DNA from: Nitrospirota bacterium
Lineage (GTDB): Bacteria > Nitrospirota > Thermodesulfovibrionia > Thermodesulfovibrionales > JdFR-88
Reading direction: 5' to 3'
DNA: 64,000 nt
Assembly (NCBI GenBank): GCA_014874185.1
Contig: JACWAF010000026.1
Location: 15,256-79,255, forward strand
Below are positions 1 through 63,897 of this stretch, piece by piece. Every line of letters starts with the position of its first letter. The first letter of the stretch is position 1. The position numbers and the translations under genes are program-made. Under the pieces are notes generated by a model. The model was not told the origin of the DNA. It was given only the letters and a program-made list of their open reading frames with translations, and searched no databases.

Positions 1-1
1 T

Positions 2-544: not shown

Positions 545-551
545 TTGAAGG

Positions 552-4468: not shown

Positions 4469-4566
4469 AATTAATCCCCTGTAAGCAATGGATTTAAACC
4501 AACTTTTATTATCTGATATTTATACCTGAACCTTGCTATTTTGTATTTGCAAGTTTTTGTAATTAT

Positions 4567-5583: not shown

Positions 5584-5594
5584 TTTGAATACAA

Positions 5595-6560: not shown

Positions 6561-6617
6561 TTACTCCTTACGTTCAACTGAATATGACGTATTGTAAAAT
6601 TTTTATTACATAATTCT

Positions 6618-8245: not shown

Positions 8246-8329
8246 TGCCGGTGGTGGGAGTCGAACCCACACGAGGTTGCCCTCACCGGATTTTGAGTCC
8301 GGCGCGTCTGCCAGTTCCACCACACCGGC
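8246..8329 (-). tRNA. tRNA-Leu (anticodon CAA), class II with long variable arm, CCA not encoded
   Basis: The reverse complement folds by hand: acceptor GCCGGTG/CACCGGC, anticodon stem CCGGA/TCCGG with loop CT-CAA-AA, variable arm GAGGGCAACCTCGT, and T-arm GTGGG-TTCGACT-CCCAC. Confidence 0.9.
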
Positions 8330-14719: not shown

Positions 14720-14815
14720 TGCCCGTGCGATTATCATAAACGCGTCAAAACGACATATCATCGCGCTTAAAAGGCGGGGGGACATGCCATTTTGGCGCAA
14801 TTCTTTTCAGGAGGA

Positions 14816-16177
14816 ATGCCTTTGACCGCGGAACTGAACACGCTGATCGTTGCTGGCGGGGAATGGAAGAGGGAGTGGGAGAGGATCAGGCTGTACCTGA
14901 AGAGGAAGGGCATCAGGGTCTATTCCGTCCCCGGCCCGAAAGAGGCCCAGCGCCTCCTCAGGACCGAGCACATGAACATAGTGCTTTCGGAGTTCGACCT
15001 TAACGGGCAGGGCAGTCTCGCCTTCCTCCGGAGGCTGAAGGCCGTAAACCCCCAGGTGGAAGTGATATTCCTTTCGGGCAAGGTGCCCCTGTCGAAGGCC
15101 ATAGAGGCGATGAAGACCGGCGCGTACGACTTCTACGAATTCCCGGTGAACCCCAGGTTCCTGCTTGCGGTCATGGAGAAGGCCATTGAAAAGCAGGCCC
15201 TTTTCGTCGAGAAGGTGGAGCTTGAGCGCAAGGTGAAGGAGAGGTTCAATTTCGGCAAGATCATAGGCCGCAGCAAGGCCATGCAGCACGTTATAGAGAT
15301 AGTGGGCTCCGTGGCCCCCAAGAACGTCAACATCCTCCTCTCAGGCGAGACCGGCACGGGCAAGGAGATGATCGCAAACGCCATACACTATAACAGCGCC
15401 CGCGCATCGAGGCCGTTCGTAAAGGTGAACTGCGCGGCCTTCAACGAGGGGGTGCTGGAAAGCGAGCTCTTCGGGCATGAAAAAGGCGCCTTCACCGGCG
15501 CGATCTCGAAGAGGGTGGGCAGGTTCGAGCTTTCAAACGGGGGGACCATCTTCCTTGACGAGATAGGCGACGTCTCGCCGGGGACCCAGGTGAAGCTCCT
15601 GCGCGTCCTGCAGGAGAAGGAGTTCGAGCGCGTGGGCGGCAACGAGACCATAAAGGTGGACGTCCGGGTGATAGCGGCCACCAACCACGACCTCAAAAAG
15701 CTGATAGACCAGGGCAGGTTCCGCGACGACCTCTACTACAGGCTGAACGTTGTGCGCATAGAGCTGCCGCCGCTTCGCGAGCGCAGGGAGGACATCCCGC
15801 TCCTGGTCAGCTCCTTCATCAACAAGCTTAACGAGGAGAAGGCCTACGGCATAAAGGGCATCACCAAGGAGGCCATGCAGGTGCTCTTCTCCTACAGGTG
15901 GCCCGGGAACGTCCGCGAGCTTGAAAACGCCCTTGAGAGCGCGATGGCCCTTGCGGAAGCCGGCATGATTGAGGCAAAATACCTGCCGTCTTTTCTCCTC
16001 ATGCCGCAAACACAGGATGGTGAGCGCCTGAGCATACCGCGGGGCCTCACCCTCTATGAGATGGAAAAGGAGATCATCCGCCAGGCCCTGGAGAGGACCG
16101 GCGGCAATAAATCGCAGGCATCAAAATTGCTAGGTATCGGATTGCGCACATTGCAGAGAAAGGTAAAAGAACTTTAG
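14816..16177 (+). CDS. sigma-54-dependent NtrC-family activator with degenerate (non-phosphorylatable) receiver domain
   Basis: It has a receiver-like N-terminus and an AAA+ core with 'GETGTGKE' and 'ELFGHEKGAFTGA'. The HTH is 'QASKLLGIGLRTLQRKVKEL'. I prefer the ATG at 14816, which has an AGGAGG SD, to the TTG at 14792. Confidence 0.9.
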   Translation: MPLTAELNTLIVAGGEWKREWERIRLYLKRKGIRVYSVPGPKEAQRLLRTEHMNIVLSEFDLNGQGSLAFLRRLKAVNPQVEVIFLSGKVPLSKAIEAMKTGAYDFYEFPVNPRFLLAVMEKAIEKQALFVEKVELERKVKERFNFGKIIGRSKAMQHVIEIVGSVAPKNVNILLSGETGTGKEMIANAIHYNSARASRPFVKVNCAAFNEGVLESELFGHEKGAFTGAISKRVGRFELSNGGTIFLDEIGDVSPGTQVKLLRVLQEKEFERVGGNETIKVDVRVIAATNHDLKKLIDQGRFRDDLYYRLNVVRIELPPLRERREDIPLLVSSFINKLNEEKAYGIKGITKEAMQVLFSYRWPGNVRELENALESAMALAEAGMIEAKYLPSFLLMPQTQDGERLSIPRGLTLYEMEKEIIRQALERTGGNKSQASKLLGIGLRTLQRKVKEL

Positions 16178-16198: not shown

Positions 16199-18190
16199 TT
16201 GGAATTTCCTTTTTATACGGCGGCCATTTGCGCCTTCGGGGCGGGGATAACAGGTTTCCCGTTCGCCCCTAAAAAGTTATCGGGATATCTGTACTTCGTT
16301 TATGCCCTGGGCTCGGCCCTATTCGGGGCGGCGGCCCTCCAGACGGTATACTCCGGTGTGCAGACCTCGTTGAGTTTTTCCCTGAGCGGGGTGCTTGACA
16401 TCGCGTTCAGGACCGGCGGGCTTTCGGCCTTTTTCGCCCTGGTGCTCTCCATCCTTGGGTTCGCGGTCTCGGTATATTCGGCCGGGTACATGCGGCATGA
16501 GGACAACGCCTCGTTCCAGGGGGTCTTTTACGGGCTCTTCCTGATGTCAATCTACGCGGTATTCTATGCGGGAAACATGCCCGCCTTCCTTGTCTCGTGG
16601 GAGACCATGTCCCTGGTCTCCTATTTCCTCGTGGTAAGCGATTCCCGAAACGATGATTCCCGAAAGGCGGGCCTTACATACGCCACAATGACGCACATAG
16701 GCACGGCATTCATCATTGCGGCCTTCATGATCGCCTATGCCGGTACGGGGACAATGGACTTTGAAAAGCTCAGGGTCCTCATCTCCACAAAACCCGTATC
16801 GCTCCGCTGGGCCATCTTCGTTCCGGCGCTGACAGGCTTCGGGATAAAGGCGGGCATAGTGCCCCTGCACATATGGCTTCCGAAGGCGCACCCGGCCGCG
16901 CCTTCCAATGTCTCGGCCCTCATGTCCGGAGTGATGATCAAGACGGGCATCTACGGCATAGTCCTGTTTTCAATTTACATACTGGGCGGGGCGGTCGCCT
17001 CCTGGGGGGTGGTCCTCCTGGTGCTCGGGGCCGTCTCCTCCGTATTGGGGGTGCTCTATGCCCTTATGGAACACGATATGAAAAGGCTCCTCGCCTACCA
17101 CAGTGTGGAGAACATAGGGATAATACTTCTGGGAGTGGGCGCGTCGATAATCTTTCAGTCTTACGGGCTCTTCACGCTTGCCGGACTGGCCCTTGCCGCG
17201 GCGCTTTACCACACGTTGAACCACGCCGTCTTCAAGGGGCTCCTGTTCATGGGGGCGGGTTCGGTCCTGCACGGCACACATACGAAGAACATAGAGGAGA
17301 TGGGCGGGCTTTTGAAGAGGATGCCCTGGACGGGCCTTTTCTTCCTGGTGGGTTCCATATCGATATGCGCGCTTCCACCCACGAACGGCTTCGTCAGCGA
17401 ATGGCTTACCTATCAGTCATTGGTGCTTGGGAGCACGGCGCCCGCCGTATACGCCAAGGTTTTGATGCTCCTGGCCGGGACGGCGCTGGCCCTCACCGGG
17501 GCGCTCGCCGCCGACTGCTTCATAAAGGCATTCGGGATATCGTTTCTGGGAATGCCAAGGAGCGCCGAGGCGTCAGGCGCCAAAGAGTCATCCCGAAGCA
17601 TGCTGGCCGGGATGGCCGTGCTTGCGGCGTGCTGCCTTGCGCTTGGAATATTTCCAAATTTTGTCCTTGCCACAATGGGCAGGCTCGAAGTGGGCAGCCT
17701 TCCCTACGCCAGGGCCGCCCTGTCCGGAAACTGGATGCTCTCCGTCCAGAACGGCTTTTCAACCCTCTCTCCAATAGGGATACTGGCCATAATGCTGTCC
17801 GGGCTCCTGGCCCTGCTTGTCTTCATAAAGGGGCTTGGCAGGAGGGAGGTCTCCTATGGGGACTCCTGGGACTGCGGCATCAGAAGGCTCACGCCGCGGA
17901 TGCAATACACCGCCACGGCTTTTACAAAACCTCTCAGGCAGATATTCAAGAGGATATACCTGCCTACAAAAGAGGTAAAGATAATCTACAGGCTGCGGCC
18001 CTTCTTCGCGGAAAACATCACTTATAATTCGGGGATAACGCCCTTTTTCGAGAAATACGGATACGGCCCCGCGGTCTCCACGGTGCACAAGGCCGCACTC
18101 AGGATCAGAAAGCTCCAGTCCGGCAGCCTTCATCTGTACCTGGGCTATATACTGCTAACCCTCCTGGTCCTTCTTTTTGCGTGGGGGTAG
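16199..18190 (+). CDS. HyfB/HycC-like antiporter-type membrane subunit (NuoL/Mrp family)
   Basis: A 663-aa polytopic protein with 'WLPKAHPAAPSNVSALMSGVMIKTGIYG', the hallmark of NuoL/M/N-type proton-pumping subunits. Its length matches HyfB. Confidence 0.8.
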   Translation: MEFPFYTAAICAFGAGITGFPFAPKKLSGYLYFVYALGSALFGAAALQTVYSGVQTSLSFSLSGVLDIAFRTGGLSAFFALVLSILGFAVSVYSAGYMRHEDNASFQGVFYGLFLMSIYAVFYAGNMPAFLVSWETMSLVSYFLVVSDSRNDDSRKAGLTYATMTHIGTAFIIAAFMIAYAGTGTMDFEKLRVLISTKPVSLRWAIFVPALTGFGIKAGIVPLHIWLPKAHPAAPSNVSALMSGVMIKTGIYGIVLFSIYILGGAVASWGVVLLVLGAVSSVLGVLYALMEHDMKRLLAYHSVENIGIILLGVGASIIFQSYGLFTLAGLALAAALYHTLNHAVFKGLLFMGAGSVLHGTHTKNIEEMGGLLKRMPWTGLFFLVGSISICALPPTNGFVSEWLTYQSLVLGSTAPAVYAKVLMLLAGTALALTGALAADCFIKAFGISFLGMPRSAEASGAKESSRSMLAGMAVLAACCLALGIFPNFVLATMGRLEVGSLPYARAALSGNWMLSVQNGFSTLSPIGILAIMLSGLLALLVFIKGLGRREVSYGDSWDCGIRRLTPRMQYTATAFTKPLRQIFKRIYLPTKEVKIIYRLRPFFAENITYNSGITPFFEKYGYGPAVSTVHKAALRIRKLQSGSLHLYLGYILLTLLVLLFAWG

Positions 18191-19109
18191 GGTGGAGAGC
18201 CTGCAATTTCTGCTGATAATCTTCTTCTCCCCGCTCCTGCAGGGCTTCATCAAGAAAATAAAAGCCCTTTCGCAGGGGAGGGTGGGGCCTGGCATCCTTC
18301 AGCCCTACTACGACCTGATAAGGCTGTTCAAAAAAGACATGGTCATCTCGGAGACGGCCTCGTGGATATTCCATGCCGCGCCTTTCGTGACCTTCGTCTC
18401 CGTGCTTGCCGCATCCGTCATAACACCCGTTTTCAGCCTGCAGGGGGGCATCTTCAAGGCGGGGGACATAATCGCCATAATCTACACGCTGGCCCTAGGC
18501 CGTTTCTTCATGGCCCTGGCCGGGCTGGACGCGGGCACCGGGTTTGGGGGCGAGGGGTCCAGCCGCGAGGCCACCCTGGCCATCATAGTGGAGCCCGTGC
18601 TCATAATGGCCATATTCACCGCGGCCATAGCCGGGGGCTCCACAAGCCTCTCCATACTGAGCCGCTCGGCCAACATCTTCCGCTCCCCGGCCCACGTGCT
18701 GGCCTTCGCCGCTTTCTACGTGGCCCTGATAGCGGAGACCGGCAGGGTCCCGGTGGACAACCCAGACACCCACCTCGAATTAACCATGATCCACGAGGGG
18801 ATGGTCCTTGAATACTCGGGGCCGTACCTGGCCCTGATGGAATGGGCGCATTTCATGAAGCAGATGCTCCTGTTCACGATAGCCCTGGATCTCTTCTTCC
18901 CGTTCGGGATGCAGGGCGGCAGCACCGCCCTGGGGCTTGCCCCCGCTCCGGGGATTTACCTGATAAAGGTTTTCATAATGGGCGTGGCGGTCGCTTTAAC
19001 TGAAAGCACGCGGGCCAAGATGAGGTTCTTCCAGCTGCCGTCGCTTCTTGGGGGGGCCTTCGTGCTGGCCCTGCTGTCCGTGATAACCCTGATAATGCTG
19101 GGCGGATAG
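18177..19109 (+). CDS. HycD/HyfC-like membrane subunit (NuoH family)
   Basis: 'PLLQGFIKKIKALSQGRVGPGILQPYYDLIRLFKKD' matches the NuoH/HycD N-terminal signature. An alternative GTG start is at 18192. Confidence 0.8.
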   Translation: MRGGRVESLQFLLIIFFSPLLQGFIKKIKALSQGRVGPGILQPYYDLIRLFKKDMVISETASWIFHAAPFVTFVSVLAASVITPVFSLQGGIFKAGDIIAIIYTLALGRFFMALAGLDAGTGFGGEGSSREATLAIIVEPVLIMAIFTAAIAGGSTSLSILSRSANIFRSPAHVLAFAAFYVALIAETGRVPVDNPDTHLELTMIHEGMVLEYSGPYLALMEWAHFMKQMLLFTIALDLFFPFGMQGGSTALGLAPAPGIYLIKVFIMGVAVALTESTRAKMRFFQLPSLLGGAFVLALLSVITLIMLGG

Positions 19110-19113
19110 GAAC

Positions 19114-19776
19114 ATGGCAAGAAACTGGCTTCAGGCCTATTCAGTGCTGGACTTCATAGCTGTAGGGATGCTCCTGTCCGTTATAGCCGTAAGCTCGCAG
19201 AAGAGGCTGGAGTCCTGTGTGAGGACGTATGTGCTCAATTCCTGGCTGCTGGCGGCATTTGTAACCGTGAGCGCCTTCTACATGGGGATGCCGCACCTTT
19301 ACATCGCGGCGGCCCTCACGGTGCTCTCCAAGTGCTTCCTGATACCGTACTTCCTCAGGAAGGTGCTCCGGCAGCTGAGGGTGACGCATGACGTGGAGCC
19401 ATATATAAGCGCGCCGCTTTCGCTCCTGGCCGCCTTCGCCCTTGTAGTTGTGGTGTTTTCGTTTGTCTCGCAGGGCGTCTTCGTGACCGGCGTGACCAGG
19501 AACGCGCTGAAGATAGCCATATCGATAATCCTCATCAGCCTCTTCGTCATGATGACCAGGAAGAAGGCGATAACCCAGGTGATAGGGCTTCTAATAATGG
19601 AAAACGGGCTTTTCCTGGCCGGGTTTTCACTCACCTACGGGATGCCGATCATAGCGGAGCTGGGCGTGGTCTTCGACATGCTGATGGGCGTGATAATACT
19701 GGGCCTTTTTTTAACACAAATAAAAAAGGCATTCGTGAGCGTGGACCTGGACAAGCTCACCACATTGAAGGGATAG
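19114..19776 (+). CDS. HyfE-like small membrane subunit (NuoK-related)
   Basis: 220 aa with about 7 TM segments. Its size and position between the HyfC-like and HyfF-like genes match the E. coli hyf operon. Confidence 0.6.
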   Translation: MARNWLQAYSVLDFIAVGMLLSVIAVSSQKRLESCVRTYVLNSWLLAAFVTVSAFYMGMPHLYIAAALTVLSKCFLIPYFLRKVLRQLRVTHDVEPYISAPLSLLAAFALVVVVFSFVSQGVFVTGVTRNALKIAISIILISLFVMMTRKKAITQVIGLLIMENGLFLAGFSLTYGMPIIAELGVVFDMLMGVIILGLFLTQIKKAFVSVDLDKLTTLKG

Positions 19777-21225
19777 ATGCTATACGGGGTACTGATACCG
19801 CTTGCGGCCGCTCTCATCCTGATGGCCTCGAAGAGGCTGAAGCCGGCCGAATACATTACCGTGCTTGCCGCCGGGGCAGGGGCCCTCTGGGCGGGCACGA
19901 TTGCCTTCTACGCGCTTTACGGATATGTATTCGACGGGCTTGGCGGCCTCTTCAGGGCCGACGCGCTCTCGGCCTATATCCTCCTTATCATTGCCGGTCT
20001 GTCATTCGCAACGGCGGTCTATTCGGTTGGCTACATGAGGGGGGAACTCTCCAGGCTTGCCATAACTGAGAAGGCTCTCAAATTCTATTACGTGCTCTTC
20101 AACCTGTTCGTCTTTACCATGATGCTCATCCCCATTTCGAACAACCTGGCCTTTTTGTGGATAGCCATTGAGGCCACCACGCTTGTGAGCGCCCTGCTGG
20201 TGGGCATCTATAAAAGGCAGAACTCGATAGAGGCGGCCTGGAAGTACATCATCCTCTGCACGGTGGGCATCACGTTTGCCCTCCTGGGCACGTTCGTCAT
20301 CTACTACGCCTCCGCCGAGGCCGGCACGGGCACCCTGGACTGGACGGAGCTTAGCCGGATGGCCCACGGCCTGAACCCGGCCACTGTGAGGCTGGCCTTC
20401 ATACTGATAATAGTGGGGTACGGCACAAAGGCCGGGCTGGCCCCGGTACACAACTGGCTCCCGGACGCCCACAGCGAGGCCCCCACGCCGGTGAGCGCGC
20501 TCCTTTCGGGCATCCTCCTGAACTGCGCCTTCTACGGCGTGATGAGGTTCGCGGCCATCGCGGACAAGTCCTGCGGGCACGCCTTCGTGCAGGAGATAAT
20601 GGTATTCTTCGGGCTGGCTTCGATAATCATCCCCGCCATATTCATCCTTATTCAGTCCAATGCCAAGAGGCTCCTCGCTTACAGCAGCATAGAGCACATG
20701 GGGATAATCGCCCTGGCCTTCGGCATAGGCGGGGTCTGGGGCATCTACGCCGCCCTCCTGCACATCCTGAACCACGCCCTCGGGAAGCCCCTCATGTTCT
20801 TCGTCATGGGCAGGGTGCACTCGCAATATCATTCCGTTGAGATGGGCGAGGTGAGAGGCGTGCTCGGGGTGAACCCCCTGATTGCGGTGATCGGCTTTGC
20901 CGGGGCGATGTGCCTTGCCGGGATGCCGCCATTCAATATATTCCTCAGCGAATTTTTAATGATTAAGACCCTTGCCGCGGGCAGCTACTGGGGCATTATG
21001 GCCACGTTCCTCGCGGCAAGCGGGTTTGTGTTTTACGGGTTTTTAAAGGGTTTTGGCGGGATGTTCCTTGGCAAGCCCTCGCTGGAGCACGGAGAGCCGG
21101 TTTCCTTCAGGGCCTCAGATACGGTGCTGGTAGTGATGGGGATGGGCATCCTGCTCCTGGGGCTTTCCATCCCGGGGCCGCTGAATAAACTGATCAACCT
21201 CTCCATAGGGGCGCTCGGGGTCTAG
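19777..21225 (+). CDS. HyfF-like antiporter-type membrane subunit (NuoM/N family)
   Basis: Contains 'GTKAGLAPVHNWLPDAHSEAPTPVSALLSGILLNCAFYG', the NuoM/N signature. Confidence 0.8.
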   Translation: MLYGVLIPLAAALILMASKRLKPAEYITVLAAGAGALWAGTIAFYALYGYVFDGLGGLFRADALSAYILLIIAGLSFATAVYSVGYMRGELSRLAITEKALKFYYVLFNLFVFTMMLIPISNNLAFLWIAIEATTLVSALLVGIYKRQNSIEAAWKYIILCTVGITFALLGTFVIYYASAEAGTGTLDWTELSRMAHGLNPATVRLAFILIIVGYGTKAGLAPVHNWLPDAHSEAPTPVSALLSGILLNCAFYGVMRFAAIADKSCGHAFVQEIMVFFGLASIIIPAIFILIQSNAKRLLAYSSIEHMGIIALAFGIGGVWGIYAALLHILNHALGKPLMFFVMGRVHSQYHSVEMGEVRGVLGVNPLIAVIGFAGAMCLAGMPPFNIFLSEFLMIKTLAAGSYWGIMATFLAASGFVFYGFLKGFGGMFLGKPSLEHGEPVSFRASDTVLVVMGMGILLLGLSIPGPLNKLINLSIGALGV

Positions 21226-21226
21226 C

Positions 21227-22756
21227 ATGAATCCGGCAAACGAGATACACAAGAAACTGACCGAGGGGGAATTCCGCGAAGAGGCGGCAATGCTATTTGA
21301 TAATGGCAACCCGCTCATGCTCATGTTCTGCGTGGACGAGCGGGAGATTGGCGGAGGGTTCACCGTCTATGCCGTCTTCTCTTTGAAGGGAGAAGACCTG
21401 TTCATGGTCCTGAGCTTCCCCGTAACCGAAAAATCCGGGCGGTTTGCGTATAAGAGCATCACCCCCCTGGTGCCCGCCGCCCACTGGTACGAGCGTGAGA
21501 TAAGGGACATGTTCGGGATAGAGCCGCTGGGGCACCCAGACCCCAGGCCGCTGGTCCTTCACGGCATGTATCCGGACAACCTCCATCCCTTGAGAAGGGA
21601 CGTGACCGTGGAACAGATAAGAAGCCGCATTGACCTCGAAAGAGAGGACAATTACAATTTCGTGAAGGTAGAGGGCGAGGGGGTCTGCGAGATACCGGTG
21701 GGCCCCGTGCACGCGGGCATCATAGAGCCCGGCCATTTCCGTTTCAGCGCCGTGGGCGAAAGCATTTACTTCCTGGACCCAAGGCTGTTCTATACCCATA
21801 AAGGGGTGGAAAAACACTTCGAGCGGATTGGCTTCGAGCGGGGCGCAGCGCTTGCCGAAAGGGTGTCCGGCTGTTCCTCCTTCGCGCACTCCACGGCATA
21901 TTGCCTCGCGGTGGAAAGGATGGCCGGAGTGGAAATACCCGAAAAGGCCAAAGCCATCCGGACGCTCCTTCTGGAACTGGAGCGGATTTACAACCATATC
22001 GGCGACATAGGCAATATGTGCGCCGGGACGGGCTTCGCCGTTGGCTACCAGAGCGGCGCGCTGATAAAAGAGAAGCTCATGAGGCTGAACGCAAGCCTGA
22101 CCGGAAGCAGATATCTGAGGGGGGTGAATGCTCTTGGGGGCGTCAGCAGGGACGTGCTTGAGAAAGCGGACGAGATACTCTTCACCCTGGACGAGGTCAC
22201 TACGGAGTACAAGGATTTCATGGAGCTTCTGACCGGTTCGGTCTCCCATATGGAAAGACTGGACGGGGCGGGCGTGCTCTCGATGGACATAGCGCGCAAG
22301 CTTGGCGCCACGGGCATAGCCGCCCGCGGTTCGGGCATAAACCAGGACATGCGCACCGTGCACAAACACCTGATGTATGATTCAGTTGTGTTCGAGGCCC
22401 ATTCACGGGGGAAAGGCGACGTGCTGGCGCGGATGATGGTGAGGGCGGACGAGGCCGAATGCTCGTTCTCGATAATAGAGTCCATCCTCAAAGAGCCCTA
22501 TCCCGGCCCCCTCGCAGCCGGTATAAAAGGATTCCCGGCGCTCTCCTCCGCATTGGGCTATGTGGAGGGGCCCAGGGGGTCTGTCTTCTACTTTGTGAAG
22601 ACGAACGACAAGGGGGAACCGCTGAGGGTCAAGGTGCGTTCGGCATCGTTTTGCAACTGGCCTTTGATGCCCTTTGCGGTGAGGGGAAACATCATTCCGG
22701 ACTTCCCGCTTGTCAACAAGAGTTTTAATCTTTCATATTCCGGCTCGGACATGTAA
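21227..22756 (+). CDS. HycE/HyfG-like fused NuoC-NuoD-type subunit lacking all four [NiFe]-ligand cysteines
   Basis: Contains 'GPVHAGIIEPGHFRF' and 'RLFYTHKGVEK', typical of group-4 large subunits. The ligand motifs read RVSGCSSFAH (instead of RxCGxCxxxH), and the C-terminus reads NLSYSGSDM* (instead of DPCxxCxxR). Confidence 0.8.
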   Translation: MNPANEIHKKLTEGEFREEAAMLFDNGNPLMLMFCVDEREIGGGFTVYAVFSLKGEDLFMVLSFPVTEKSGRFAYKSITPLVPAAHWYEREIRDMFGIEPLGHPDPRPLVLHGMYPDNLHPLRRDVTVEQIRSRIDLEREDNYNFVKVEGEGVCEIPVGPVHAGIIEPGHFRFSAVGESIYFLDPRLFYTHKGVEKHFERIGFERGAALAERVSGCSSFAHSTAYCLAVERMAGVEIPEKAKAIRTLLLELERIYNHIGDIGNMCAGTGFAVGYQSGALIKEKLMRLNASLTGSRYLRGVNALGGVSRDVLEKADEILFTLDEVTTEYKDFMELLTGSVSHMERLDGAGVLSMDIARKLGATGIAARGSGINQDMRTVHKHLMYDSVVFEAHSRGKGDVLARMMVRADEAECSFSIIESILKEPYPGPLAAGIKGFPALSSALGYVEGPRGSVFYFVKTNDKGEPLRVKVRSASFCNWPLMPFAVRGNIIPDFPLVNKSFNLSYSGSDM

Positions 22757-22766
22757 ATTATTATTT

Positions 22767-23288
22767 ATGTTCACGCGAATTTTTAATAATATTATAGGGA
22801 AGAAAAAGGCCCTCCGGGCCGGTGAGCTTAAGCTTACAAGGTCGGACTTGGAGTTTGCCGAAGGGATGAGGAGGAAGATGCACAGCGTGTTTGGCCGCTC
22901 GGCAAGGATAAGGCAGGTGGACGCCGGCTCTTGCAATGCCTGCGAATGGGAGTGCACCGCCATGGGGAACCCCGTGTACGATTCGCAGAGGTTCGGGGTG
23001 GATTTCGTGGCCTCCCCCAGGCACGCCGACATCATCCTCGTTACGGGGCCGGTCTCGCTGGGTATGGTACTGGCCCTCAAAAAGACATATCTCGCCACAC
23101 CGGGGCCGAAGCTGGTCATCGCCTGCGGCGACTGCTCGAAAGACGGCGGCATTTACCGGGGCAGTTACGCGGTCACGGACGGGGCCGCGGAGATAGTGCC
23201 GGTGGACAGCTACATCCCGGGGTGTCCGCCCACGCCGCGCGACATACTCGCGGGAATAAGCAGGACCATTGACGCATTCATCAAATAA
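22767..23288 (+). CDS. HycG/HyfI-like small subunit (NuoB family), [4Fe-4S] cysteines retained
   Basis: Contains 'GSCNACEWE', 'SPRHADIILVTG', 'IACGDC' and 'YIPGCPPTP'. I prefer the ATG at 22767, just after the upstream stop, to 22710. Confidence 0.85.
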   Translation: MFTRIFNNIIGKKKALRAGELKLTRSDLEFAEGMRRKMHSVFGRSARIRQVDAGSCNACEWECTAMGNPVYDSQRFGVDFVASPRHADIILVTGPVSLGMVLALKKTYLATPGPKLVIACGDCSKDGGIYRGSYAVTDGAAEIVPVDSYIPGCPPTPRDILAGISRTIDAFIK

Positions 23289-23301
23289 AAGGAGGCTATT
23301 G

Positions 23302-24669
23302 ATGTCAGAGGCCGCTAGAGAGTACGAAGAACCTCCGAGCCAACAGATTCAAGTCCTGCCGCGCGAGGACGCGCACGGGGGAGACGACCTCTTCCGCAAG
23401 GTGGATCTCGCGCGGAAATTCTGGCCAGAGGCAACCCAGTCCGAATGGAACGACCCCCGATGGCAGATGGCAAACAGGCTCCGCACACTGGAACCGCTCT
23501 CCACTCTACTGGACCTGAAGCCCTATCAGAAACCGCGCTACAAAAGACTTATAGACGCGTTCCACTACTCGATCACCCCCTATTATCTCTCTCTGGCCAA
23601 CTGGTCTGACCCGGAAGACCCCATCAGAAAGCAGTGCGTCCCGGACCTCCGGGAGCTGGAATTCCAAATGGTGGGCGACAACGACCCGCTGGAAGAGGAA
23701 GATGACATGCAGGTGCAGGGGCTTGTGCACCGCTACCCGGACCGGGTGCTGGTAATAGCCACCAACGCCTGCAGCATGTATTGCAGGCATTGCACCAGGA
23801 AAAGGATCTGGCACGAGGGCGAGTCCTCAAGAAGTAAAAAAGATTTCCAGGCGATGCTCCATTATATCCGGGTCACTCCGGAGGTGCGAGAGGTGATCGT
23901 CTCCGGCGGAGACCCTCTTACAATGAACATGGAGCTTCTGGACTGGCTCCTTGGCGAACTCCGCAGGATATCCCATGTTGAGGTGCTCCGGATAGGCACG
24001 AGGCTTCCGGTGGTGCTCCCCATGGGCGTAACGGACGATATGGTGAAAATGCTCAGGGGCCACCGCCCGCTCTGGCTGAACACCCAGTTCAATCACCCGG
24101 CCGAGATAACCCCCGAGTCGCGGGAGGCCTGCGACCGCATACTCTCGGCGGGGATTCCGGTCAGCAACCAGTCGGTGCTCCTCCGCGGCATAAACGACTC
24201 ACCCGAAATAATGAAAGATCTCTGCCACGGGCTTCAGAGGATCATGGTTCGGCCCTATTACCTTTTCCAGTGCGACCCGGTGCGCGGAGTGGAGCATTTC
24301 CGCACCAGCATCTGGAAGGGGATAGAGATAATAGAGATGATGCGCGGCTACACGGGCGGGCTTACAATCCCCAATTTCGTGGTGGACGCGCCCGGCGGAG
24401 GCGGGAAGATACCGCTCCAGCCGTTCTATCTGCTCTCGGTCACCGACAAGGAGATTCTCCTCAGGAATTACGAGGGGATGATAATAAAGTACTACAACCC
24501 GGATGAGACCCATATGGAACGGGGCAGGAAATCGAACGGCGCCGGCAGGGACGGCGGCACGGCCCAGCTCCTGAAAGGCCAGGGGAAGGCCCTTGTGCCG
24601 GAAGAGACCCAGCGCTACAAGAGGAGAAAGCAGAAGGACCTGCTATTCAAGCTGGGCGATATGAAATGA
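23302..24669 (+). CDS. KamA-family radical-SAM amino acid 2,3-aminomutase (lysine 2,3-aminomutase-like; substrate not determinable by eye)
   Basis: Contains 'NACSMYCRHCTRKR' (CxxxCxxC), 'VIVSGGDPL' and 'RPYYLFQCDPVRGVEHF'. The SD AAGGAGG lies 7 nt upstream of the ATG at 23302. Confidence 0.85.
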   Translation: MSEAAREYEEPPSQQIQVLPREDAHGGDDLFRKVDLARKFWPEATQSEWNDPRWQMANRLRTLEPLSTLLDLKPYQKPRYKRLIDAFHYSITPYYLSLANWSDPEDPIRKQCVPDLRELEFQMVGDNDPLEEEDDMQVQGLVHRYPDRVLVIATNACSMYCRHCTRKRIWHEGESSRSKKDFQAMLHYIRVTPEVREVIVSGGDPLTMNMELLDWLLGELRRISHVEVLRIGTRLPVVLPMGVTDDMVKMLRGHRPLWLNTQFNHPAEITPESREACDRILSAGIPVSNQSVLLRGINDSPEIMKDLCHGLQRIMVRPYYLFQCDPVRGVEHFRTSIWKGIEIIEMMRGYTGGLTIPNFVVDAPGGGGKIPLQPFYLLSVTDKEILLRNYEGMIIKYYNPDETHMERGRKSNGAGRDGGTAQLLKGQGKALVPEETQRYKRRKQKDLLFKLGDMK

Positions 24670-25733
24670 AGATCGCCCTCACTTACGACCTCCGGCGCGA
24701 GTACATGGAGATGGGCTACTCCGAGGAGGAGACCGCCGAGTTCGACAGCGAAGAGACCGTCGAGCATCTTAAGGCCGCTGTGCGCGAACTGGGGCACGAG
24801 GCCGTCCCGGCAGGCAATATCTACGAGCTTACCCGCCGTCTTGCCGGCGGAGAGACCTGGGACCTGGTCTTCAATATCTGCGAGGGGCTCCGGGGCAGGA
24901 ACCGCGAGTCCCAGGCGCCCGCCCTCCTTGAGGCCTATAATATCCCTTACACGTTCAGCGACCCCCTCACGCTTTCTTTATGCCTGGACAAGGCCATGGC
25001 GAAGCGGGTGGTGCGGGACTCCGGCGTGCCCACACCGGATTTCTTCGTCATAAATTCTGTCCCGGAGATAGATAAATCAGAACTCCCAAAAGGGATGAAA
25101 TTCCCGCTTTTCGTAAAGCCCGTCTCCGAGGGGACGGGGAAGGGCGTTACCCCGGCCTCGATAGTGAACGACCCGAAAGAGCTTAAGAACCAGGCAAGGA
25201 GGCTGCTCTTGAAATATTCGCAGCCCGTCCTGGTGGAGGGCTATCTTCCGGGAGATGAGTTCACGGTGGGGATACTTGGCACCGGACCCGAGGCCCGTGT
25301 GATAGGCGCGTTGGAGGTGAAACTCCTCAAGAGCGCCGAGCCCCTGGTCTACTCCTACATGAACAAGGAACTCTGCGAAGAGCGCGTGGAGTACACGCTT
25401 GTAAAAAGTAAAAAGCTCCTCAGGGAGGCCTCGGACGTGGCCCTTCGCGCATACCAAGCCCTCCAGTGCAGGGACGCGGGCAGGGCGGACCTGAAGGCCG
25501 GCCCGGACGGAAGGCTTCAATTCATTGAGATGAACCCGCTTGCGGGGCTTCATCCCACGCACTCCGACCTGCCGGTCCTATGCTCCAGGGCCGGGATGAG
25601 CTACAGGGAGCTTGTCTCTTCCATAATAGAATCCGCATCCAAAAGAAAGGCCTCTTCAAACAGCAGGACAGCCTGCAATACAGACCAGTCCTTATTCCGG
25701 AGGCCGCCCCCGGGCAGGCCAGCCGGCCTTTGA
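24666..25733 (+). CDS. ATP-grasp ligase, D-alanine--D-alanine ligase-like family
   Basis: Ddl-like layout: 'DKAMAKRVVRDSGVPTPDF', 'FPLFVKPVSEGTGKGV', 'YLPGDEFTVGILG', 'LQFIEMNPLAGL'. Its ATGA start overlaps the kamA-like stop. Confidence 0.75.
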   Translation: MKIALTYDLRREYMEMGYSEEETAEFDSEETVEHLKAAVRELGHEAVPAGNIYELTRRLAGGETWDLVFNICEGLRGRNRESQAPALLEAYNIPYTFSDPLTLSLCLDKAMAKRVVRDSGVPTPDFFVINSVPEIDKSELPKGMKFPLFVKPVSEGTGKGVTPASIVNDPKELKNQARRLLLKYSQPVLVEGYLPGDEFTVGILGTGPEARVIGALEVKLLKSAEPLVYSYMNKELCEERVEYTLVKSKKLLREASDVALRAYQALQCRDAGRADLKAGPDGRLQFIEMNPLAGLHPTHSDLPVLCSRAGMSYRELVSSIIESASKRKASSNSRTACNTDQSLFRRPPPGRPAGL

Positions 25734-26707
25734 TGAAAATAGCCGTTGTATATAACGAGCCCGATAAGGGGAGTCTCGACTCGATGGATATCCTGGACGA
25801 GCTGTCTACCGTAACCGGCGGATTGGACGGGCTCGGGCTGGATTACGAGGTCTTCCCCGTTGCCGCGGTCCCCGGCTTCTGCGCGGGGCTCCTCTCAGGT
25901 CTGGAAAAATTCTCTCCGGGGCTTGTCTTCAACCTGGTTGAGGGGGTGGGCGGGAATTACAGGCTTCACCCCGCGATGGCCGCCCTGTTCGAGATGGCGG
26001 GCTACCCGCACACCGGTTCCCCTTATGACGTGCTCCTTGCCACCACGGACAAAACGATGGCCAAGGGGATCATGAAGGCGCACGGCATAAAAACCCCTGA
26101 CTGGGAAATCTATAAAGGCGGCCCTTTCAGGCCACAGGTAAATACGCCCTGCATCGTGAAGCCCTCGTTCGAGGACGCCTCGGTGGGGATAGACGACAGC
26201 AGTCTGATAATCGATGCCGATGATCTGCTGGAAAAGGCCGGGAGCATCTACCGGAAATTTCACAGGCGGCCGGTGCTGATAGAGAGCTTCATCCCCGGCA
26301 GAGAGTTCAATGTCTCTCTCCTCGAAAAGCCGGACGGGGTGGAGGTCTTCCCCCTGGCCGAGATATTATTCACCAACTGGCCCGACAAAAAGCCAAAAAT
26401 AGTGAACTACAACGCCAAATGGGTGGAGGACTCTTTTGAATATCAGAACACACCCAGGACATTCGCGCCCGCTCCGGCCCCCTTTGGAGAGATAAGGGAA
26501 ACGGCGCTCAGGTGCTGGGACATATTTAACCTGCGGGGGTATGCGCGGGTGGACATGAGACTTGACGCGGAGGGCACCCCCTACGTTATCGAGGTAAACG
26601 CGAACCCCTGCATAGCGCCGTGGTCGGGCTATCTGGCCGCGGCCAAAGAGGCCGGCTGCGGGCCCCGGGATGTGATGAAGCGTATAATAGAGAGCGCCCT
26701 CTTATGA
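25733..26707 (+). CDS. second ATP-grasp ligase, D-alanine--D-alanine ligase-like family
   Basis: Contains 'DKTMAKGIMKAHGIKTPDW', 'PCIVKPSFEDASVGI', 'FIPGREFNVSLL' and 'PYVIEVNANPCI'. Its start overlaps the upstream stop (TGATG at 25731-25735). Confidence 0.75.
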   Translation: MKIAVVYNEPDKGSLDSMDILDELSTVTGGLDGLGLDYEVFPVAAVPGFCAGLLSGLEKFSPGLVFNLVEGVGGNYRLHPAMAALFEMAGYPHTGSPYDVLLATTDKTMAKGIMKAHGIKTPDWEIYKGGPFRPQVNTPCIVKPSFEDASVGIDDSSLIIDADDLLEKAGSIYRKFHRRPVLIESFIPGREFNVSLLEKPDGVEVFPLAEILFTNWPDKKPKIVNYNAKWVEDSFEYQNTPRTFAPAPAPFGEIRETALRCWDIFNLRGYARVDMRLDAEGTPYVIEVNANPCIAPWSGYLAAAKEAGCGPRDVMKRIIESALL

Positions 26708-27261
26708 GGATATCGGGCATCCGGAAGAAAATGGAGGCGTTGAAAGGCGTGCGCCTGCGCGATAACGTCAGGGTTGAAGACAAAAGGGCCGTGGCGGATA
26801 TCCTCTCGGCATCCGGGCTCTTCTATCCATATGAAATCGATGTGGCGATTGAATTGCTGGACGACTTTCTTGATAAAGGCAGGCAAAGCGAGTACCGGTT
26901 CCTCTTCGCGGATATCGGGGGCGGGGCGGCAGGGTACGCGTGCTTCGGGCCAATCTCGATGTCTCCGGGCAGGTTCGATCTTTACTGGATAGCCGTAGAC
27001 AAGAAGCATCAGAGGAAAGGGATCGGGGGGCTGCTCCTCTCCGGGGCTGAAAAGAAAATGGCGGCAGAGGGGGCCGGATACATCTATGTAGAGACCTCTT
27101 CAAGAGAGGTTTACCTGCCCACCCGGCGCTTCTATGAAAAGCACGGGTATCGTCAGGTCGCCTGCGTGCCGGAGTACTTTGGCGACGGCGACCACAAGAT
27201 CATCTACATGAACTCCATTAAAAAGTCTCTTGACACCTTTTTGGGAAGTTATAAAATTTAA
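26704..27261 (+). CDS. GNAT-family N-acetyltransferase
   Basis: 'LYWIAVDKKHQRKGIGGLLLSGAEK' is the acetyl-CoA binding Q/RxxGxG/A motif. Its ATGA start overlaps the upstream stop. Confidence 0.8.
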   Translation: MRISGIRKKMEALKGVRLRDNVRVEDKRAVADILSASGLFYPYEIDVAIELLDDFLDKGRQSEYRFLFADIGGGAAGYACFGPISMSPGRFDLYWIAVDKKHQRKGIGGLLLSGAEKKMAAEGAGYIYVETSSREVYLPTRRFYEKHGYRQVACVPEYFGDGDHKIIYMNSIKKSLDTFLGSYKI

Positions 27262-27263
27262 CT

Positions 27264-27836
27264 ATGAAAAAGATACTGCTTCTTCTCATGGCTCTGGCGC
27301 TTTTGGCATCCTGCGCTCCGGTCCTGAACAAGGGGCTTATGAGAGAAGGGACCAGGAACCCTTCCTTCCAGAGCCTGCTCGATAACCCCGGCATGTACAA
27401 GGGGAAACTCTTTATCATGGGCGGCATTATAGCAAGCACCAAAATAACGCCTGAGGGCTCGCTCATCGAGGCCCTCTATGTGCCGGTGGACAGTTCCGGA
27501 GAGCTGAAGGACAAATACGGCGAGCAGGGCAGGTTCCTGGCGCTCCTCCCGAAGGACAAGGGCATGCTGGATCCGATGATTTACAAGAAGAACCGCGCGA
27601 TAACCCTTGCGGGCACTTACATGGGCACCCGGACAACCAAAATAGACACCACCGACGTCGCCCTTCCCTTCTTCAATATAGTGCAGATATATCTCTGGAG
27701 GGAAGAGGCCTACTATGCGTATCCCTATTCCTATTATCCGTATTATGGCTATCCCTACTATCCGTACTACTATAACTATCCCTTCTGGTGGGAAAGGCCC
27801 TATAACAGGTTCTACGGGCCTCCGTACTGGTATTAG
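27264..27836 (+). CDS. Slp-family outer-membrane lipoprotein with Tyr/Pro-rich C-terminal tail
   Basis: It has a signal peptide with lipobox LLASC. 'KLFIMGGIIASTKITPEGSLIEALYVPVDSSGEL...GRFLALL...DPMIYKKNRAITLAG' fits the Slp family. The tail reads 'YYAYPYSYYPYYGYPYYPYYYNYPFWWERPYNRFYGPPYWY'. Confidence 0.7.
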   Translation: MKKILLLLMALALLASCAPVLNKGLMREGTRNPSFQSLLDNPGMYKGKLFIMGGIIASTKITPEGSLIEALYVPVDSSGELKDKYGEQGRFLALLPKDKGMLDPMIYKKNRAITLAGTYMGTRTTKIDTTDVALPFFNIVQIYLWREEAYYAYPYSYYPYYGYPYYPYYYNYPFWWERPYNRFYGPPYWY

Positions 27837-29629: not shown

Positions 29630-30591
29630 TAAAAGCAGAGGACATTAGAAAGCTCTACCCGGTGAAAAGGGGCGTCTTCGGAAAGACCGAATGGCTGAAG
29701 GCAGTGGACGGCGTGAGCATAAGCGTATCCGAAAACAGCGTGCTTGGGATAGTGGGCGAGTCCGGCTCCGGCAAGTCCACGCTGGCCAGGATCATAATGG
29801 CCCTGATAGAGCCCACCTCCGGCCGCGTCCTTTTCCAGGGCAGGGATGTCTTCGGGCTGAACAAGGCGGAACTGAAGGCGTTCCGGCGCGCCGTGCAGAT
29901 AATCTTCCAGGACCCGTTTGCTTCGTTGAACCCCCGCAGGACGGTCTTCGATACCATAGCCGAGCCGTTGAAGATACATCACCTGGCGCAAAACGGCGGC
30001 GTGCGGGACAGGGCGGTGCAGCTCCTTCGGGACGTGGGGCTTGGCCCGGAGGTGCTCACCCGCTACCCGCACGAGTTCAGCGGCGGCCAGCGCCAGCGCA
30101 TCTGCATAGCGCGCGCCCTTGCCGTGAGCCCCAGGCTCATCGTGGCGGACGAGCCGCTCTCCGCCCTGGACGTCTCCATACAGGCGCAGATATTAAACAT
30201 CCTCCGCGAACTCAAAGAGCGCGAACGCATCTCCTACATCTTCATAAGCCATGATTTGCGAGTGGTGGAGTACATAAGCGACGAGGTAGCGGTGATGTAC
30301 CTGGGCCGCATCGTGGAGCAGGCAGATGCCGAAGAACTGTTCAAAAGGCCCCTGCACCCGTACACGGAGGGGCTTCTGGCCTCCGTGCCGGAGCTTGTGC
30401 CCGGAAAGCCCAGGCGCCAGGCCCCGAAGGGGGATGTGCCAAGCCCCGTTGACATACCGCCTGGCTGCCCGTTCCATCCCCGCTGTCCGAAGCGCTTCGG
30501 GCCGTGCGATAAGATAGTGCCCCGGTTCACGTCTAGCCCACAAAGCGATGGGCGGCTTGTCGCCTGCCACCTCTGGAATCCGGCTGAGTAA
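29593..30591 (+). CDS. oligopeptide/dipeptide ABC transporter ATP-binding protein (OppF/DppF type)
   Basis: Walker A 'GESGSGKST', signature 'FSGGQRQRI', Walker B 'IVADEPLSALD' and C-terminal '...PPGCPFHPRCP...LVACHLW'. The exact start is uncertain. Confidence 0.85.
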   Translation: MHPLGGTRLEALIKAEDIRKLYPVKRGVFGKTEWLKAVDGVSISVSENSVLGIVGESGSGKSTLARIIMALIEPTSGRVLFQGRDVFGLNKAELKAFRRAVQIIFQDPFASLNPRRTVFDTIAEPLKIHHLAQNGGVRDRAVQLLRDVGLGPEVLTRYPHEFSGGQRQRICIARALAVSPRLIVADEPLSALDVSIQAQILNILRELKERERISYIFISHDLRVVEYISDEVAVMYLGRIVEQADAEELFKRPLHPYTEGLLASVPELVPGKPRRQAPKGDVPSPVDIPPGCPFHPRCPKRFGPCDKIVPRFTSSPQSDGRLVACHLWNPAE

Positions 30592-30601
30592 GGGTTGATC
30601 G

Positions 30602-30923
30602 GGTCACCCGTGGGCGGGTGACTCCCACGAAAATAAGATAGTGCCCCGGTTCACGTCTAGCCCACAAAGCGATGGGCGGGTGACTCCCACGAAAAGTTAT
30701 GAAACCCGGCGGAGTCCGGTCCTTATCCAGTCCCCTCTTGGGAGGGGTGCAGGGGTGGGTTGTTTGTTCCGTCATTCCGGCGAAAGCCGGAATCTAGCGA
30801 CTTTGCTTTTTTCCCGTTTAAGAGAACTCCCTTTAAGATAAAAAGAAAAGGAACTCCGCTGAATCGGTCTTGTCTTTAGCCAAATATAAAATTTCCGTGG
30901 GAGTCACCCGCCCACGGGTGACC
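30602..30923. repeat. 322-bp composite repeat region bounded by perfect 28-bp inverted repeats
   Basis: GGTCACCCGTGGGCGGGTGACTCCCACG at 30602-30629 equals the reverse complement of 30896-30923. The interior holds a 47-bp copy of the oppF 3' end, a 34-bp 'F2' repeat (30729-30762) and an 'F1' hairpin (30771-30803). Confidence 0.85.
30633..30679 (+). repeat. 47-bp perfect direct duplicate of the oppF 3' coding sequence (30509-30555)
   Basis: ATAAGATAGTGCCCCGGTTCACGTCTAGCCCACAAAGCGATGGGCGG occurs identically at both positions. Confidence 0.9.
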
Positions 30924-31584: not shown

Positions 31585-31992
31585 TTGCATGCTTTAGGTA
31601 AACACTTGTTAGTGGACTTGAGAGACTGCAGGCCTGAGGCCATCAGGGACCTGGGCCTTGTAAAGGACGCGATGGTCAGGGCAGCAAAAGCGGCGTCCGC
31701 CACGATAGTAGACGTTTCCTTCCACGAATTCAGTCCCTTCGGCATCAGCGGAATGGTAGTCATAGCCGAATCACACCTCAGCATACACACCTGGCCGGAG
31801 TACGGCTACGCGGCTGTTGACATCTTCACATGCGGAGACCTGATAGACCCCGAGAAAGCGGCGGCTTACCTGATAGAGCGGTTCGAGAGCAGGAACCCCC
31901 AGGTAATGGAAATGAAGAGGGGCATCCTGCCGCCTTTCAACGAGAGATTGCCCCACAAGGTTTCCGGAGATGCGGTTGACAGCTATGTGTAA
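31585..31992 (+). CDS. speH: S-adenosylmethionine decarboxylase proenzyme (small bacterial/archaeal type)
   Basis: 'VVIAESHLSIHTWPEYGYAAVDIFTCG' carries the self-cleavage E-S site. The start is a TTG with a GGAGGG SD. Confidence 0.85.
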   Translation: MHALGKHLLVDLRDCRPEAIRDLGLVKDAMVRAAKAASATIVDVSFHEFSPFGISGMVVIAESHLSIHTWPEYGYAAVDIFTCGDLIDPEKAAAYLIERFESRNPQVMEMKRGILPPFNERLPHKVSGDAVDSYV

Positions 31993-62311: not shown

Positions 62312-62509
62312 TCGGAATTTCCTTTCAGGACAGCAATTCTTTATTATAAGCCCCCAGGGCGGGATTGGTAAATAATGGAGGGGAGCTTCTCCGCCGGCTG
62401 TAACAGCAAAATGATAATGTCCGGGGGAAAGGCACCCTTGACCGAAAAGCTCAGGCCTGCAAGCCCTTCGCTTTCGCCATGGGGAGGTCCAGACCAGCCA
62501 TCGCTTCAC

Positions 62510-62538
62510 TTGCAAATTTCATGAAAAGGGTATATATT
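62510..62538 (+). promoter_or_regulatory. sigma-70-type promoter for vapBC (TTGCAA-17 nt-TATATT)
   Basis: The hexamers have canonical spacing and lie 26 nt upstream of the vapB ATG. Confidence 0.4.
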
Positions 62539-62563
62539 TTTAGTATATATGTTGGAGGTTGGT

Positions 62564-62791: not shown

Positions 62792-62794
62792 TCC

Positions 62795-63196: not shown

Positions 63197-63457
63197 GATT
63201 GCGCTTTCTTACTTGCATGGCTGCACTTATTGCTCCAGGTGTAACTACTGTTATACAGGGTGCAGCAGATTCTTATGGATTTTTCCAAACCGCAAGAGCG
63301 TGGCAGTATGCTGCAAATAAAGGACTTACCGTACCTTTAAGGTCTTCAATTGTCAGAAGCCTATTGAAAGCAGGTAGCGAGGTGCCTAGTACTGTCCAAT
63401 TGATTGTGGTAGTTGCTACGGAAATAAAATGTTTGAAACAAGAAGTGGGCTGCATGA

Positions 63458-63886: not shown

Positions 63887-63897
63887 GGGGGGGAATT

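Follow-up and report, generated by a model that had tools for sequence, protein, structure and literature searches.

To our knowledge, beta-lysine has three fates: it is acetylated to give an archaeal-type osmolyte, attached to elongation factor P (EF-P), or incorporated by large synthetases into antibiotics. AblA and AblB synthesize N-epsilon-acetyl-beta-lysine in methanogens, and the bacterial counterpart of this pair is kamA-yodP of Bacillus subtilis. In the PylB/PylC system, lysine is rearranged by a radical S-adenosylmethionine (SAM) enzyme, after which an ATP-grasp ligase related to D-alanine-D-alanine ligase (Ddl) joins the product to a second amine. Ngg of Sinorhizobium and Pseudomonas fuses a GNAT acetyltransferase to an ATP-grasp enzyme and makes N-acetylglutaminylglutamine amide, an acetylated dipeptide solute. 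We analysed a stretch of 64,000 nucleotides from a Nitrospirota bacterium (contig JACWAF010000026.1, positions 15,256 to 79,255), hereafter the window, which carries four co-directional genes at 23302-27261 (+) encoding a KamA-family radical-SAM aminomutase (KamA), two Ddl-like ATP-grasp ligases (AG1 and AG2), and a GNAT N-acetyltransferase. This cassette falls outside AblA/AblB, kamA-yodP, Ngg, PylB/PylC, and EpmA/EpmB, all of which it resembles in logic only. It is an uncharacterised biosynthetic operon whose enzyme families are known but whose combination of them is absent from searchable sources. On balance, we favour the reading that it converts L-lysine into a small, cytoplasmic, N-acetylated, amide-linked conjugate of beta-lysine, and we hold this to be reasonably, though not strongly, probable.

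KamA, AG1, AG2, and GNAT form one operon, which is real and strongly conserved. The kamA gene (23302-24669, +; 455 aa) encodes a KamA/AblA-type, pyridoxal 5'-phosphate (PLP)-dependent L-lysine 2,3-aminomutase recognized by Pfam, NCBIfam, and a match to a solved structure. Its ATG at 23302 lies 14 nt past the TAA of an upstream hydrogenase small-subunit gene, and a Shine-Dalgarno-like AGGAGG (23290-23295, +) stands 7 nt 5' of the start. AG1 (24666-25733, +; 355 aa) begins within an ATGA overlap with the KamA stop codon (24666-24669), AG2 (25733-26707, +; 324 aa) has its ATG at 25733 in a TGATG overlap with the TGA of AG1 (25731-25735), and the GNAT gene (26704-27261, +; 185 aa) starts in an ATGA overlap with the stop codon of AG2 (26704-26707) and ends with TAA at 27259-27261. 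The Shine-Dalgarno-like site and the overlaps were read directly from the DNA. Independent gene calls on two metagenome contigs that encode identical proteins give the same four lengths. Pfam assigns LAM_C and Radical_SAM to KamA, Dala_Dala_lig_C to both ligases (99 bits for AG1 and 88 bits for AG2), and Acetyltransf_1 to the GNAT, which also matches Acetyltransf_7 and Acetyltransf_10. A first reading of this DNA, made from its letters and open reading frames (the sequence-only reading), had described four genes coupled by these overlaps, a KamA-type CxxxCxxC motif in the first, and a GNAT in the last. The gene boundaries and junctions agree with it exactly, the motif CSMYCRHCTRKR occupies residues 157-168 of KamA, and the terminal gene is a GNAT by its Pfam domain.

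The evidence is firmest for the first enzyme: KamA is well supported as a lysine-type aminomutase, with beta-lysine as its predicted product. The best-scoring NCBIfam model is the AblA equivalog TIGR03820, which nevertheless stays below its threshold (498.2 bits, cut-off 525.4), and the KamA-family subfamily model TIGR00238 is passed (315 bits, cut-off 199). The models for glutamate 2,3-aminomutase (TIGR04368; 444.5 bits, cut-off 650), arginine 2,3-aminomutase (367 bits, cut-off 600), and EpmB (232 bits, cut-off 369) all remain under their cut-offs. A 424-bit alignment to the structure of Clostridium subterminale lysine 2,3-aminomutase (LAM; PDB: 2A5H) places the functional residues, and we scored their conservation over 62 aminomutases from the cassette context. 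The segment at 23770-23805 (+) holds C157, C161, and C164 of the CxxxCxxC [4Fe-4S]/SAM motif as well as R166, the equivalent of the substrate-carboxylate arginine R134; these cysteines and the arginine are kept in all 59 aminomutases that cover the region, and the other three have a gap there. Asp325 (24274-24276, +) corresponds to D293 of the clostridial enzyme, a ligand of the lysine epsilon-amine, and is kept in 62/62 sequences. Equally invariant (62/62) are two residues of the motif DAPGGGGK (24385-24408, +), Asp362, equivalent to the second epsilon-amine ligand D330, and Lys369, equivalent to the PLP Schiff-base lysine K337. Beta-lysine is the predicted product because the cysteine motif, the carboxylate arginine, the PLP lysine, and both epsilon-amine aspartates are kept. 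The substrate-specifying positions thus carry the Asp pair and not the Lys/Asn of glutamate 2,3-aminomutase; together with the ranking of the hidden Markov models (HMMs), in which AblA comes first, this rules out a glutamate or arginine aminomutase. KamA differs from the clostridial LAM in lacking all four of its zinc-site cysteines (C268, C375, C377, and C380).

Set beside the described systems, the cassette shares with AblA/AblB and kamA-yodP a lysine 2,3-aminomutase with the Asp pair and a GNAT in the same operon. Unlike them, it has two ATP-grasp ligases between these genes, its GNAT is not of the AblB type, and its KamA lies under the AblA equivalog cut-off. The sequence-only reading had pointed to the methanogen osmolyte pathway and proposed an N-acetylated peptide or short oligomer containing a beta-amino acid; the lysine-type mutase, the non-Ddl ligases, and the linkage across phyla lend that interpretation partial support, and the tie to the AblA/AblB osmolyte holds as an analogy only. 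The PylB/PylC system likewise pairs a lysine mutase with a Ddl-like ligase, but PylB is not a KamA-family PLP enzyme, whereas the radical-SAM enzyme of the cassette is, and the PylD dehydrogenase has no counterpart in the cassette. PylC was not found among the matches listed for AG1 and AG2, either in the PDB sequence search (E <= 0.1, best 60) or among the fold matches. The GNAT/ATP-grasp fusion of Ngg is mirrored in AG2::GNAT proteins of some cassettes, yet the order of the domains and the ATP-grasp subfamily differ (that of the cassette is Ddl-like), and the cassette has a beta-amino-acid-forming enzyme and no AsnO-type amidotransferase. In the EpmB/EpmA system, a KamA-family aminomutase also feeds beta-lysine to an ATP-dependent ligase, but the partner in the cassette is an ATP-grasp enzyme and not a lysyl-tRNA synthetase paralogue, and no EpmA-like gene is present in the cassette or conserved in related loci.

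AG1 and AG2 share with Ddl and VanA the three-domain ATP-grasp fold and the ATP, magnesium, and catalytic residues, and differ from them in sequence (about 25-29% identity) and in standing beside KamA and GNAT instead of mur or fts genes. AlphaFold2 models of both are confident (predicted local distance difference test 91 for AG1 and 94 for AG2), and their top Foldseek matches are Ddl structures (template modelling score 0.73-0.86 over both, with 0.73-0.85 for AG1 and about 0.8 for AG2). By sequence as by fold, D-Ala-D-Ala ligases and VanA are their only substantial relatives among solved structures. The sequence-only reading had called the two enzymes paralogous and Ddl-like. The second part stands; the first applies at superfamily level only, as AG1 and AG2 are 28% identical to each other and each is 28-29% identical to E. 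coli DdlB. Since their mutual distance is about that to DdlB, they represent old, separate subfamilies and not a recent duplication. Neither is a cell-wall Ddl by HMM placement: on the Ddl model PRK01372 (cut-off 243), AG1 reaches 149.7 bits and AG2 108.7 bits, and with every other Ddl and Van model of NCBIfam they score lower still, far under the respective cut-off.

Aligned to DdlB, both ligase families invariably carry K97, K144, E180, E187, K215, R255, D257, E270, and N272 (DdlB numbering), and this ATP-, magnesium-binding, and catalytic set is also invariant within 45 AG1 and 44 AG2 homologues. With these residues intact, both should be active, acyl-phosphate-forming enzymes, and on this basis AG1 and AG2 should be catalytically competent ATP-grasp ligases. 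The residues of the D-Ala sites have changed instead: among E15, H63, S150, Y216, S281, and L282, S281 alone is retained. H63 is replaced by Glu in both ligases, Y216 by Glu in AG1 and Trp in AG2, L282 by Asp in AG1 and Gly in AG2, and S150 by Thr in AG1 and Ala in AG2. E15, which in Ddl holds the amine of the carboxyl-donor amino acid, has become Asp in both, so that the acidity is kept. The pockets of AG1 and AG2 are more acidic than that of Ddl and would suit a diamino substrate.

These features bear on two other views of the ligases. According to the first, they are cell-wall enzymes that make an unusual peptidoglycan dipeptide terminus or a cross-bridge containing beta-lysine or a D-amino acid, as could be expected from their nearest characterised relatives, which are Ddl, VanA, and Ddl-like cross-bridge ligases, and from the many homologues publicly annotated as 'D-alanine-D-alanine ligase' (other annotations among the homologues are 'ATP-grasp domain-containing protein', 'RimI-like', and 'hypothetical'). 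We consider this very unlikely in view of scores far under all Ddl and Van cut-offs, the substitution of H63, Y216, and L282 in the D-Ala sites, the position of AG1 and AG2, which adjoin KamA but in none of the loci examined a mur or fts gene, and the company of a cytoplasmic GNAT and an acetylpolyamine-type deacetylase, both foreign to known wall pathways. A true Ddl identity in particular is ruled out by the sub-cut-off scores, the pocket changes, and the KamA/GNAT context.

In the second view, beta-lysine is the monomer, with or without a second amino acid, from which the ligases build an oligomer or polymer, either a cyanophycin-like nitrogen reserve or a polycation, and acetylation sets its charge. 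Iterative ATP-grasp enzymes do exist (RimK and the G domain of cyanophycin synthetase), the AG1 profile weakly matches cyanophycin synthase (35 bits), and the acetylation and deacetylation pair described below could tune the charge of a polycation. Yet both predicted structures adopt the closed Ddl architecture with three domains, which is usual for ligases of small molecules and differs from that of known iterative ATP-grasp enzymes, the profiles match Ddl structures with 100-110 bits against the 35 bits for cyanophycin synthase, and no primer or hydrolase such as a cyanophycinase is conserved nearby. We therefore regard a polymer as improbable and retain a small conjugate as the preferred product.

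The linkage of the four genes extends far beyond Nitrospirota. We scanned one genome per species from 185,579 species for AG1, which yielded 506 encoding stretches, retrieved the best 80 of these 506, and counted neighbours over the 47 loci with enough flank on both sides. KamA lies directly 5' of AG1 in 43/47 loci, AG2 directly 3' of AG1 in 40/47, and a GNAT gene 3' of the ligases in 35/47, with strand and gene order unchanged throughout. The order KamA-ligase-ligase-GNAT thus recurs across phyla, and the linkage goes beyond chance; the sequence-only reading had named ordinary cell-wall Ddl paralogues unlinked to KamA in related genomes as the outcome that would speak against its pathway, and AG1 is instead found behind KamA. 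Cassette loci fall under at least eight phylum-level labels, and relatives of AG1 are labelled Planctomycetota, Nitrospirota, Desulfobacterota, Alpha- and Gammaproteobacteria, Acidobacteria, Bacteroidota, Spirochaetota, Myxococcota, and Firestonebacteria. The cassettes are very common across whole families (e.g., Planctomycetaceae and Pirellulaceae) and occupy unrelated chromosomal contexts (e.g., locus L084). A cultured carrier is Hydrosulfovibrio ferrireducens CB1MN (locus L070). All-against-all clustering of the open reading frames in the 80 loci revealed no other conserved same-strand family beside the two facultative genes described below, and no transporter or exporter, regulator, precursor peptide, or carrier protein conserved with the cassette.

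This neighbourhood also speaks to a catabolic role, in which lysine would be fermented or degraded via beta-lysine and N-acetyl-beta-lysine. Clostridial lysine fermentation begins with KamA, and kamA of B. subtilis shares its operon with genes for an acetyltransferase and a deacetylase. However, a 5,6-aminomutase, a 3,5-diaminohexanoate dehydrogenase, a cleavage enzyme, an aminotransferase, and a CoA transferase are neither present nor conserved, and two ATP-consuming ligases would be unexpected in a catabolic route, which makes such a function extremely improbable. Biosynthesis of a beta-lysine conjugate is the reading that we carry forward.

The terminal GNAT passes the Acetyltransf_1 gathering score (50.6 bits against 20.7), and its only NCBIfam matches, all sub-threshold, are RimI, PRK03624, and AAC(6'). 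The nearest solved structure is 2R7H (111 bits), and a search for homologues of the GNAT yielded no named isolate. Fusions of AG2 and GNAT in a single polypeptide occur in at least 13 protein clusters, and one locus with such a fusion, L085, was verified; we infer from them that AG2 is functionally paired with the GNAT. Two further genes are facultative members of sister cassettes; within the 64-kb window, neither of them was found. The first, present in many of them, encodes a fusion of about 580 aa that joins a GNAT-like domain to a histone-deacetylase (HDAC)-family domain (L022 10108-11856, L007 4761-6524, L049 10768-12483, and L017 9972-12254). It is located 5' of the GNAT gene in Planctomycetota and 3' of it in Desulfurivibrionaceae, and in L017 it is joined to the terminal GNAT as well. 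The deacetylase domain of this fifth gene, which is confined to extended cassettes, resembles acetylpolyamine amidohydrolases (210-234 bits) more than protein deacetylases (about 110 bits); it is unlike the former in having an N-terminal GNAT-like domain and in lying in a KamA-ligase operon.

The second facultative gene is located between KamA and AG1 in 41 loci, mainly of Planctomycetota, and encodes a small CxxCxxCC protein (PF03692, YkgJ-like) of about 165 aa with eight conserved cysteines (L022 7508-7999, L007 2196-2693, and L074 7474-8004). We considered this protein as a LysW-like carrier and rejected that role: it has no conserved acidic C-terminal tail and resembles a YkgJ-type metal-binding protein. 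A role beside the radical-SAM enzyme, as its redox or metal partner, is conceivable. The aminomutases of cassettes that bear this gene, like KamA of the window, are without the zinc-site cysteines of the clostridial LAM.

An acetyltransferase and a deacetylase in one cluster would also fit a protect/deprotect logic, in which the product would be a bioactive cationic peptide of beta-lysine, similar to an antibiotic, that the GNAT caps for self-protection or as a pro-drug and the amidohydrolase-type partner uncaps. Beta-lysine is a common building block of antibiotics, streptothricin acetyltransferases acetylate a beta-lysine amine, and the distribution of the cassette across phyla is patchy. 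We nevertheless judge an antibiotic unlikely, considering that the cassette has no conserved companion gene for export, a resistance pump, regulation, or tailoring, that it is surrounded by housekeeping genes, and that its frequency in whole families such as Planctomycetaceae and Pirellulaceae is not that of a strain-specific trait.

The same genes could be read as a system for protein beta-lysylation, EF-P-like or RimK-like, followed by reversible acetylation of the added amine. Each part has precedent: beta-lysine modifies EF-P via EpmA/EpmB, ATP-grasp enzymes of the RimK and tubulin-tyrosine ligase types act on proteins, and pairs of GNAT and HDAC-family enzymes such as AcuA/AcuC regulate proteins. 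This is a quite unlikely explanation, as the aminomutase falls well short of the EpmB cut-off (232 bits against 369) and scores 498 bits for AblA, no candidate target gene is conserved nearby, the CxxCxxCC protein does not offer a LysW-like acidic acceptor tail, and the partner deacetylase belongs to the acetylpolyamine type, which acts on small molecules. Moreover, Planctomycetota, the main carriers of the cassette, are reported to modify EF-P by EpmA/EpmB (2026 review, PMC12856214). EF-P itself is ruled out as the target by the published use of EpmA/EpmB in Planctomycetota, by the low match to EpmB, and by the missing counterpart of EpmA.

A small cytoplasmic product is favoured over a modified protein or wall component because of the closed Ddl fold of the ligases, the small-molecule type of the deacetylase, and the AG2::GNAT fusions. 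The conserved neighbourhood, in which exporters, precursor peptides, carrier proteins, and wall genes are missing, points the same way. In the proposed pathway, KamA would shift the alpha-amino group of free L-lysine to C3 to give beta-lysine, presumed to be the (3S) form because the aminomutase is nearer to KamA/AblA than to EpmB. AG1 and AG2 would then each form one amide bond via an acyl-phosphate. Beta-lysine is probably one substrate of AG1, the ligase found with KamA in all cassette variants, and AG2 would act jointly with the GNAT, to which it is fused in some genomes. The remaining free amine would be acetylated by the GNAT, most likely at the long-chain epsilon position, since the deacetylase that is added in sister cassettes is of the acetylpolyamine-amidohydrolase type. 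The predicted end product is an N-acetylated, beta-lysine-containing di- or tripeptide-like molecule. The pathway can be divided into two modules: KamA and AG1 would convert lysine to beta-lysine and link it to a partner by an amide bond, and AG2 and GNAT would constitute the second module, accompanied in some genomes by the GNAT-amidohydrolase that may deacetylate the long-chain amine.

As the genes have neither an exporter nor a precursor peptide or carrier protein as a conserved companion, the leading guess is that such a product serves as a compatible solute, protects against stress, or stores nitrogen; a polyamine-like cation is a further possible role. According to their record titles, the related loci come mostly from soil, groundwater, lakes, hot springs, and bioreactors. 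As these habitats are mostly non-saline, an osmolyte role is a guess by analogy.

Several observations weigh against the pathway as drawn. The substrates of the ligases, the order of the reactions, the acetylated nitrogen, and the product are all things that we infer, and step 1 alone is well supported. The GNAT matches no AblB-type family in NCBIfam at E <= 1e-3, and its nearest solved structure, 2R7H from Desulfovibrio, is a structural-genomics entry named 'putative D-alanine N-acetyltransferase' that is without established function. The 'full' product is not universal, as some genomes, including those of Kuenenia and certain other planctomycetes, have only a minimal form, KamA-CxxCxxCC-AG1. 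The mostly non-saline habitats lend an osmolyte role no specific support, and the model does not account for the junction of cassette and hydrogenase genes in the Nitrospirota lineage. Finally, although no description of the cassette was found in the searchable full-text literature, an earlier in-silico prediction of such an operon, in a 2009 survey of ATP-grasp systems, is possible.

The sequence-only reading could not match the locus to a characterised pathway, and neither the searchable literature nor the curated HMM libraries contain one. As to a product assignment, we found no Rfam family and no curated protein model naming AG1, AG2, or the GNAT, and two related papers from the Aravind laboratory make no mention of an aminomutase context. 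The broader claim is that the cassettes define an undescribed, widespread class of metabolites, N-acetylated beta-lysine oligo-amides acting as a new compatible solute or polyamine-like molecule, with a modular core of KamA and AG1 and an optional AG2 and GNAT, with or without an acetylpolyamine-type deacetylase for turnover; we rate this as about as likely as not. If the pathway is correct, an aminomutase with two stand-alone ligases would be a fourth route for beta-lysine and probably lead to a new metabolite, within the already known theme of beta-lysine-based small-molecule synthesis. The carriers are environmentally important and include Planctomycetota with the anammox bacteria, Nitrospirota, and sulfur-cycling Desulfobacterota. 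The analysis also corrects a systematic misannotation: hundreds of genes are labelled 'D-alanine-D-alanine ligase', which distorts inferences on cell-wall synthesis, for example in Planctomycetota. AG1 and AG2 are, in addition, potential biocatalysts for the formation of beta-peptide bonds.

In the window, the cassette follows a gene set resembling a Hyf/Hyc-type membrane [NiFe]-hydrogenase by Pfam (16199-23288, +), which is context and not part of the core. It encodes two antiporter-like subunits, a NuoH-like subunit, a fused NuoC/D-like large subunit, and a NuoB-like small subunit, and a sigma-54 response regulator is encoded 5' of it (14792-16177, +). Two other, diverged Nitrospirota genomes, with proteins 63-79% identical to those of the window, share this junction of hydrogenase small subunit and KamA and have their hydrogenase genes at L003 2946-6439 and L085 1-3370; in L085 the small-subunit and KamA genes overlap. 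This link is lineage-specific, because elsewhere the cassette stands alone among unrelated genes. In the gap that separates KamA from the hydrogenase genes, a consensus scan, which is not decisive, detected neither a promoter-like nor a terminator-like site, and Rfam at gathering thresholds identified no riboswitch or leader 5' of KamA. The only Rfam matches are a tRNA gene in the window (8246-8329, -) and a selenocysteine tRNA (tRNA-Sec) in nine related loci, including the one closest to the window (L003 16663-16756). Downstream, the last bases of the GNAT gene hold a site (27230-27257, +) that the same kind of scan identified as promoter-like, with an 11/12 match; it likely marks the downstream boundary of the cassette. 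The next gene encodes an Slp-family outer-membrane lipoprotein (27264-27836, +) that is not conserved beside the cassette in other loci. The Slp protein has an unusual Tyr/Pro-rich C-terminal tail (…YYAYPYSYYPYYGYPYYPYYYNYPFWWERPYNRFYGPPYWY).

Elsewhere in the window, speD, which encodes the S-adenosylmethionine decarboxylase of polyamine synthesis, is located at 31585-31992 (+), about 4 kb 3' of the cassette. The left end (1-8174) has a low GC content of 36-39%, compared with about 57% elsewhere, and comprises a polysaccharide-synthesis island that was probably acquired horizontally; its genes encode an RmlD fragment, three GT2 glycosyltransferases, WbsX, a GT9 glycosyltransferase, an FkbM-type methyltransferase, and a Wzx-like flippase. 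At the right end (62001-64000), the GC content falls again, to 42.5%. The intergenic region at 30509-30923, 3' of two oligopeptide-type ATP-binding cassette (ABC) ATPase genes, is rich in repeats. Its direct repeats, all perfect, are a 47-nt pair (30509 and 30633) and a 23-nt pair, and the arms of an inverted repeat of 33 nt (30602-30634 and 30891-30923) are 97% complementary. The region is a candidate for a small mobile element or a set of regulatory repeats.

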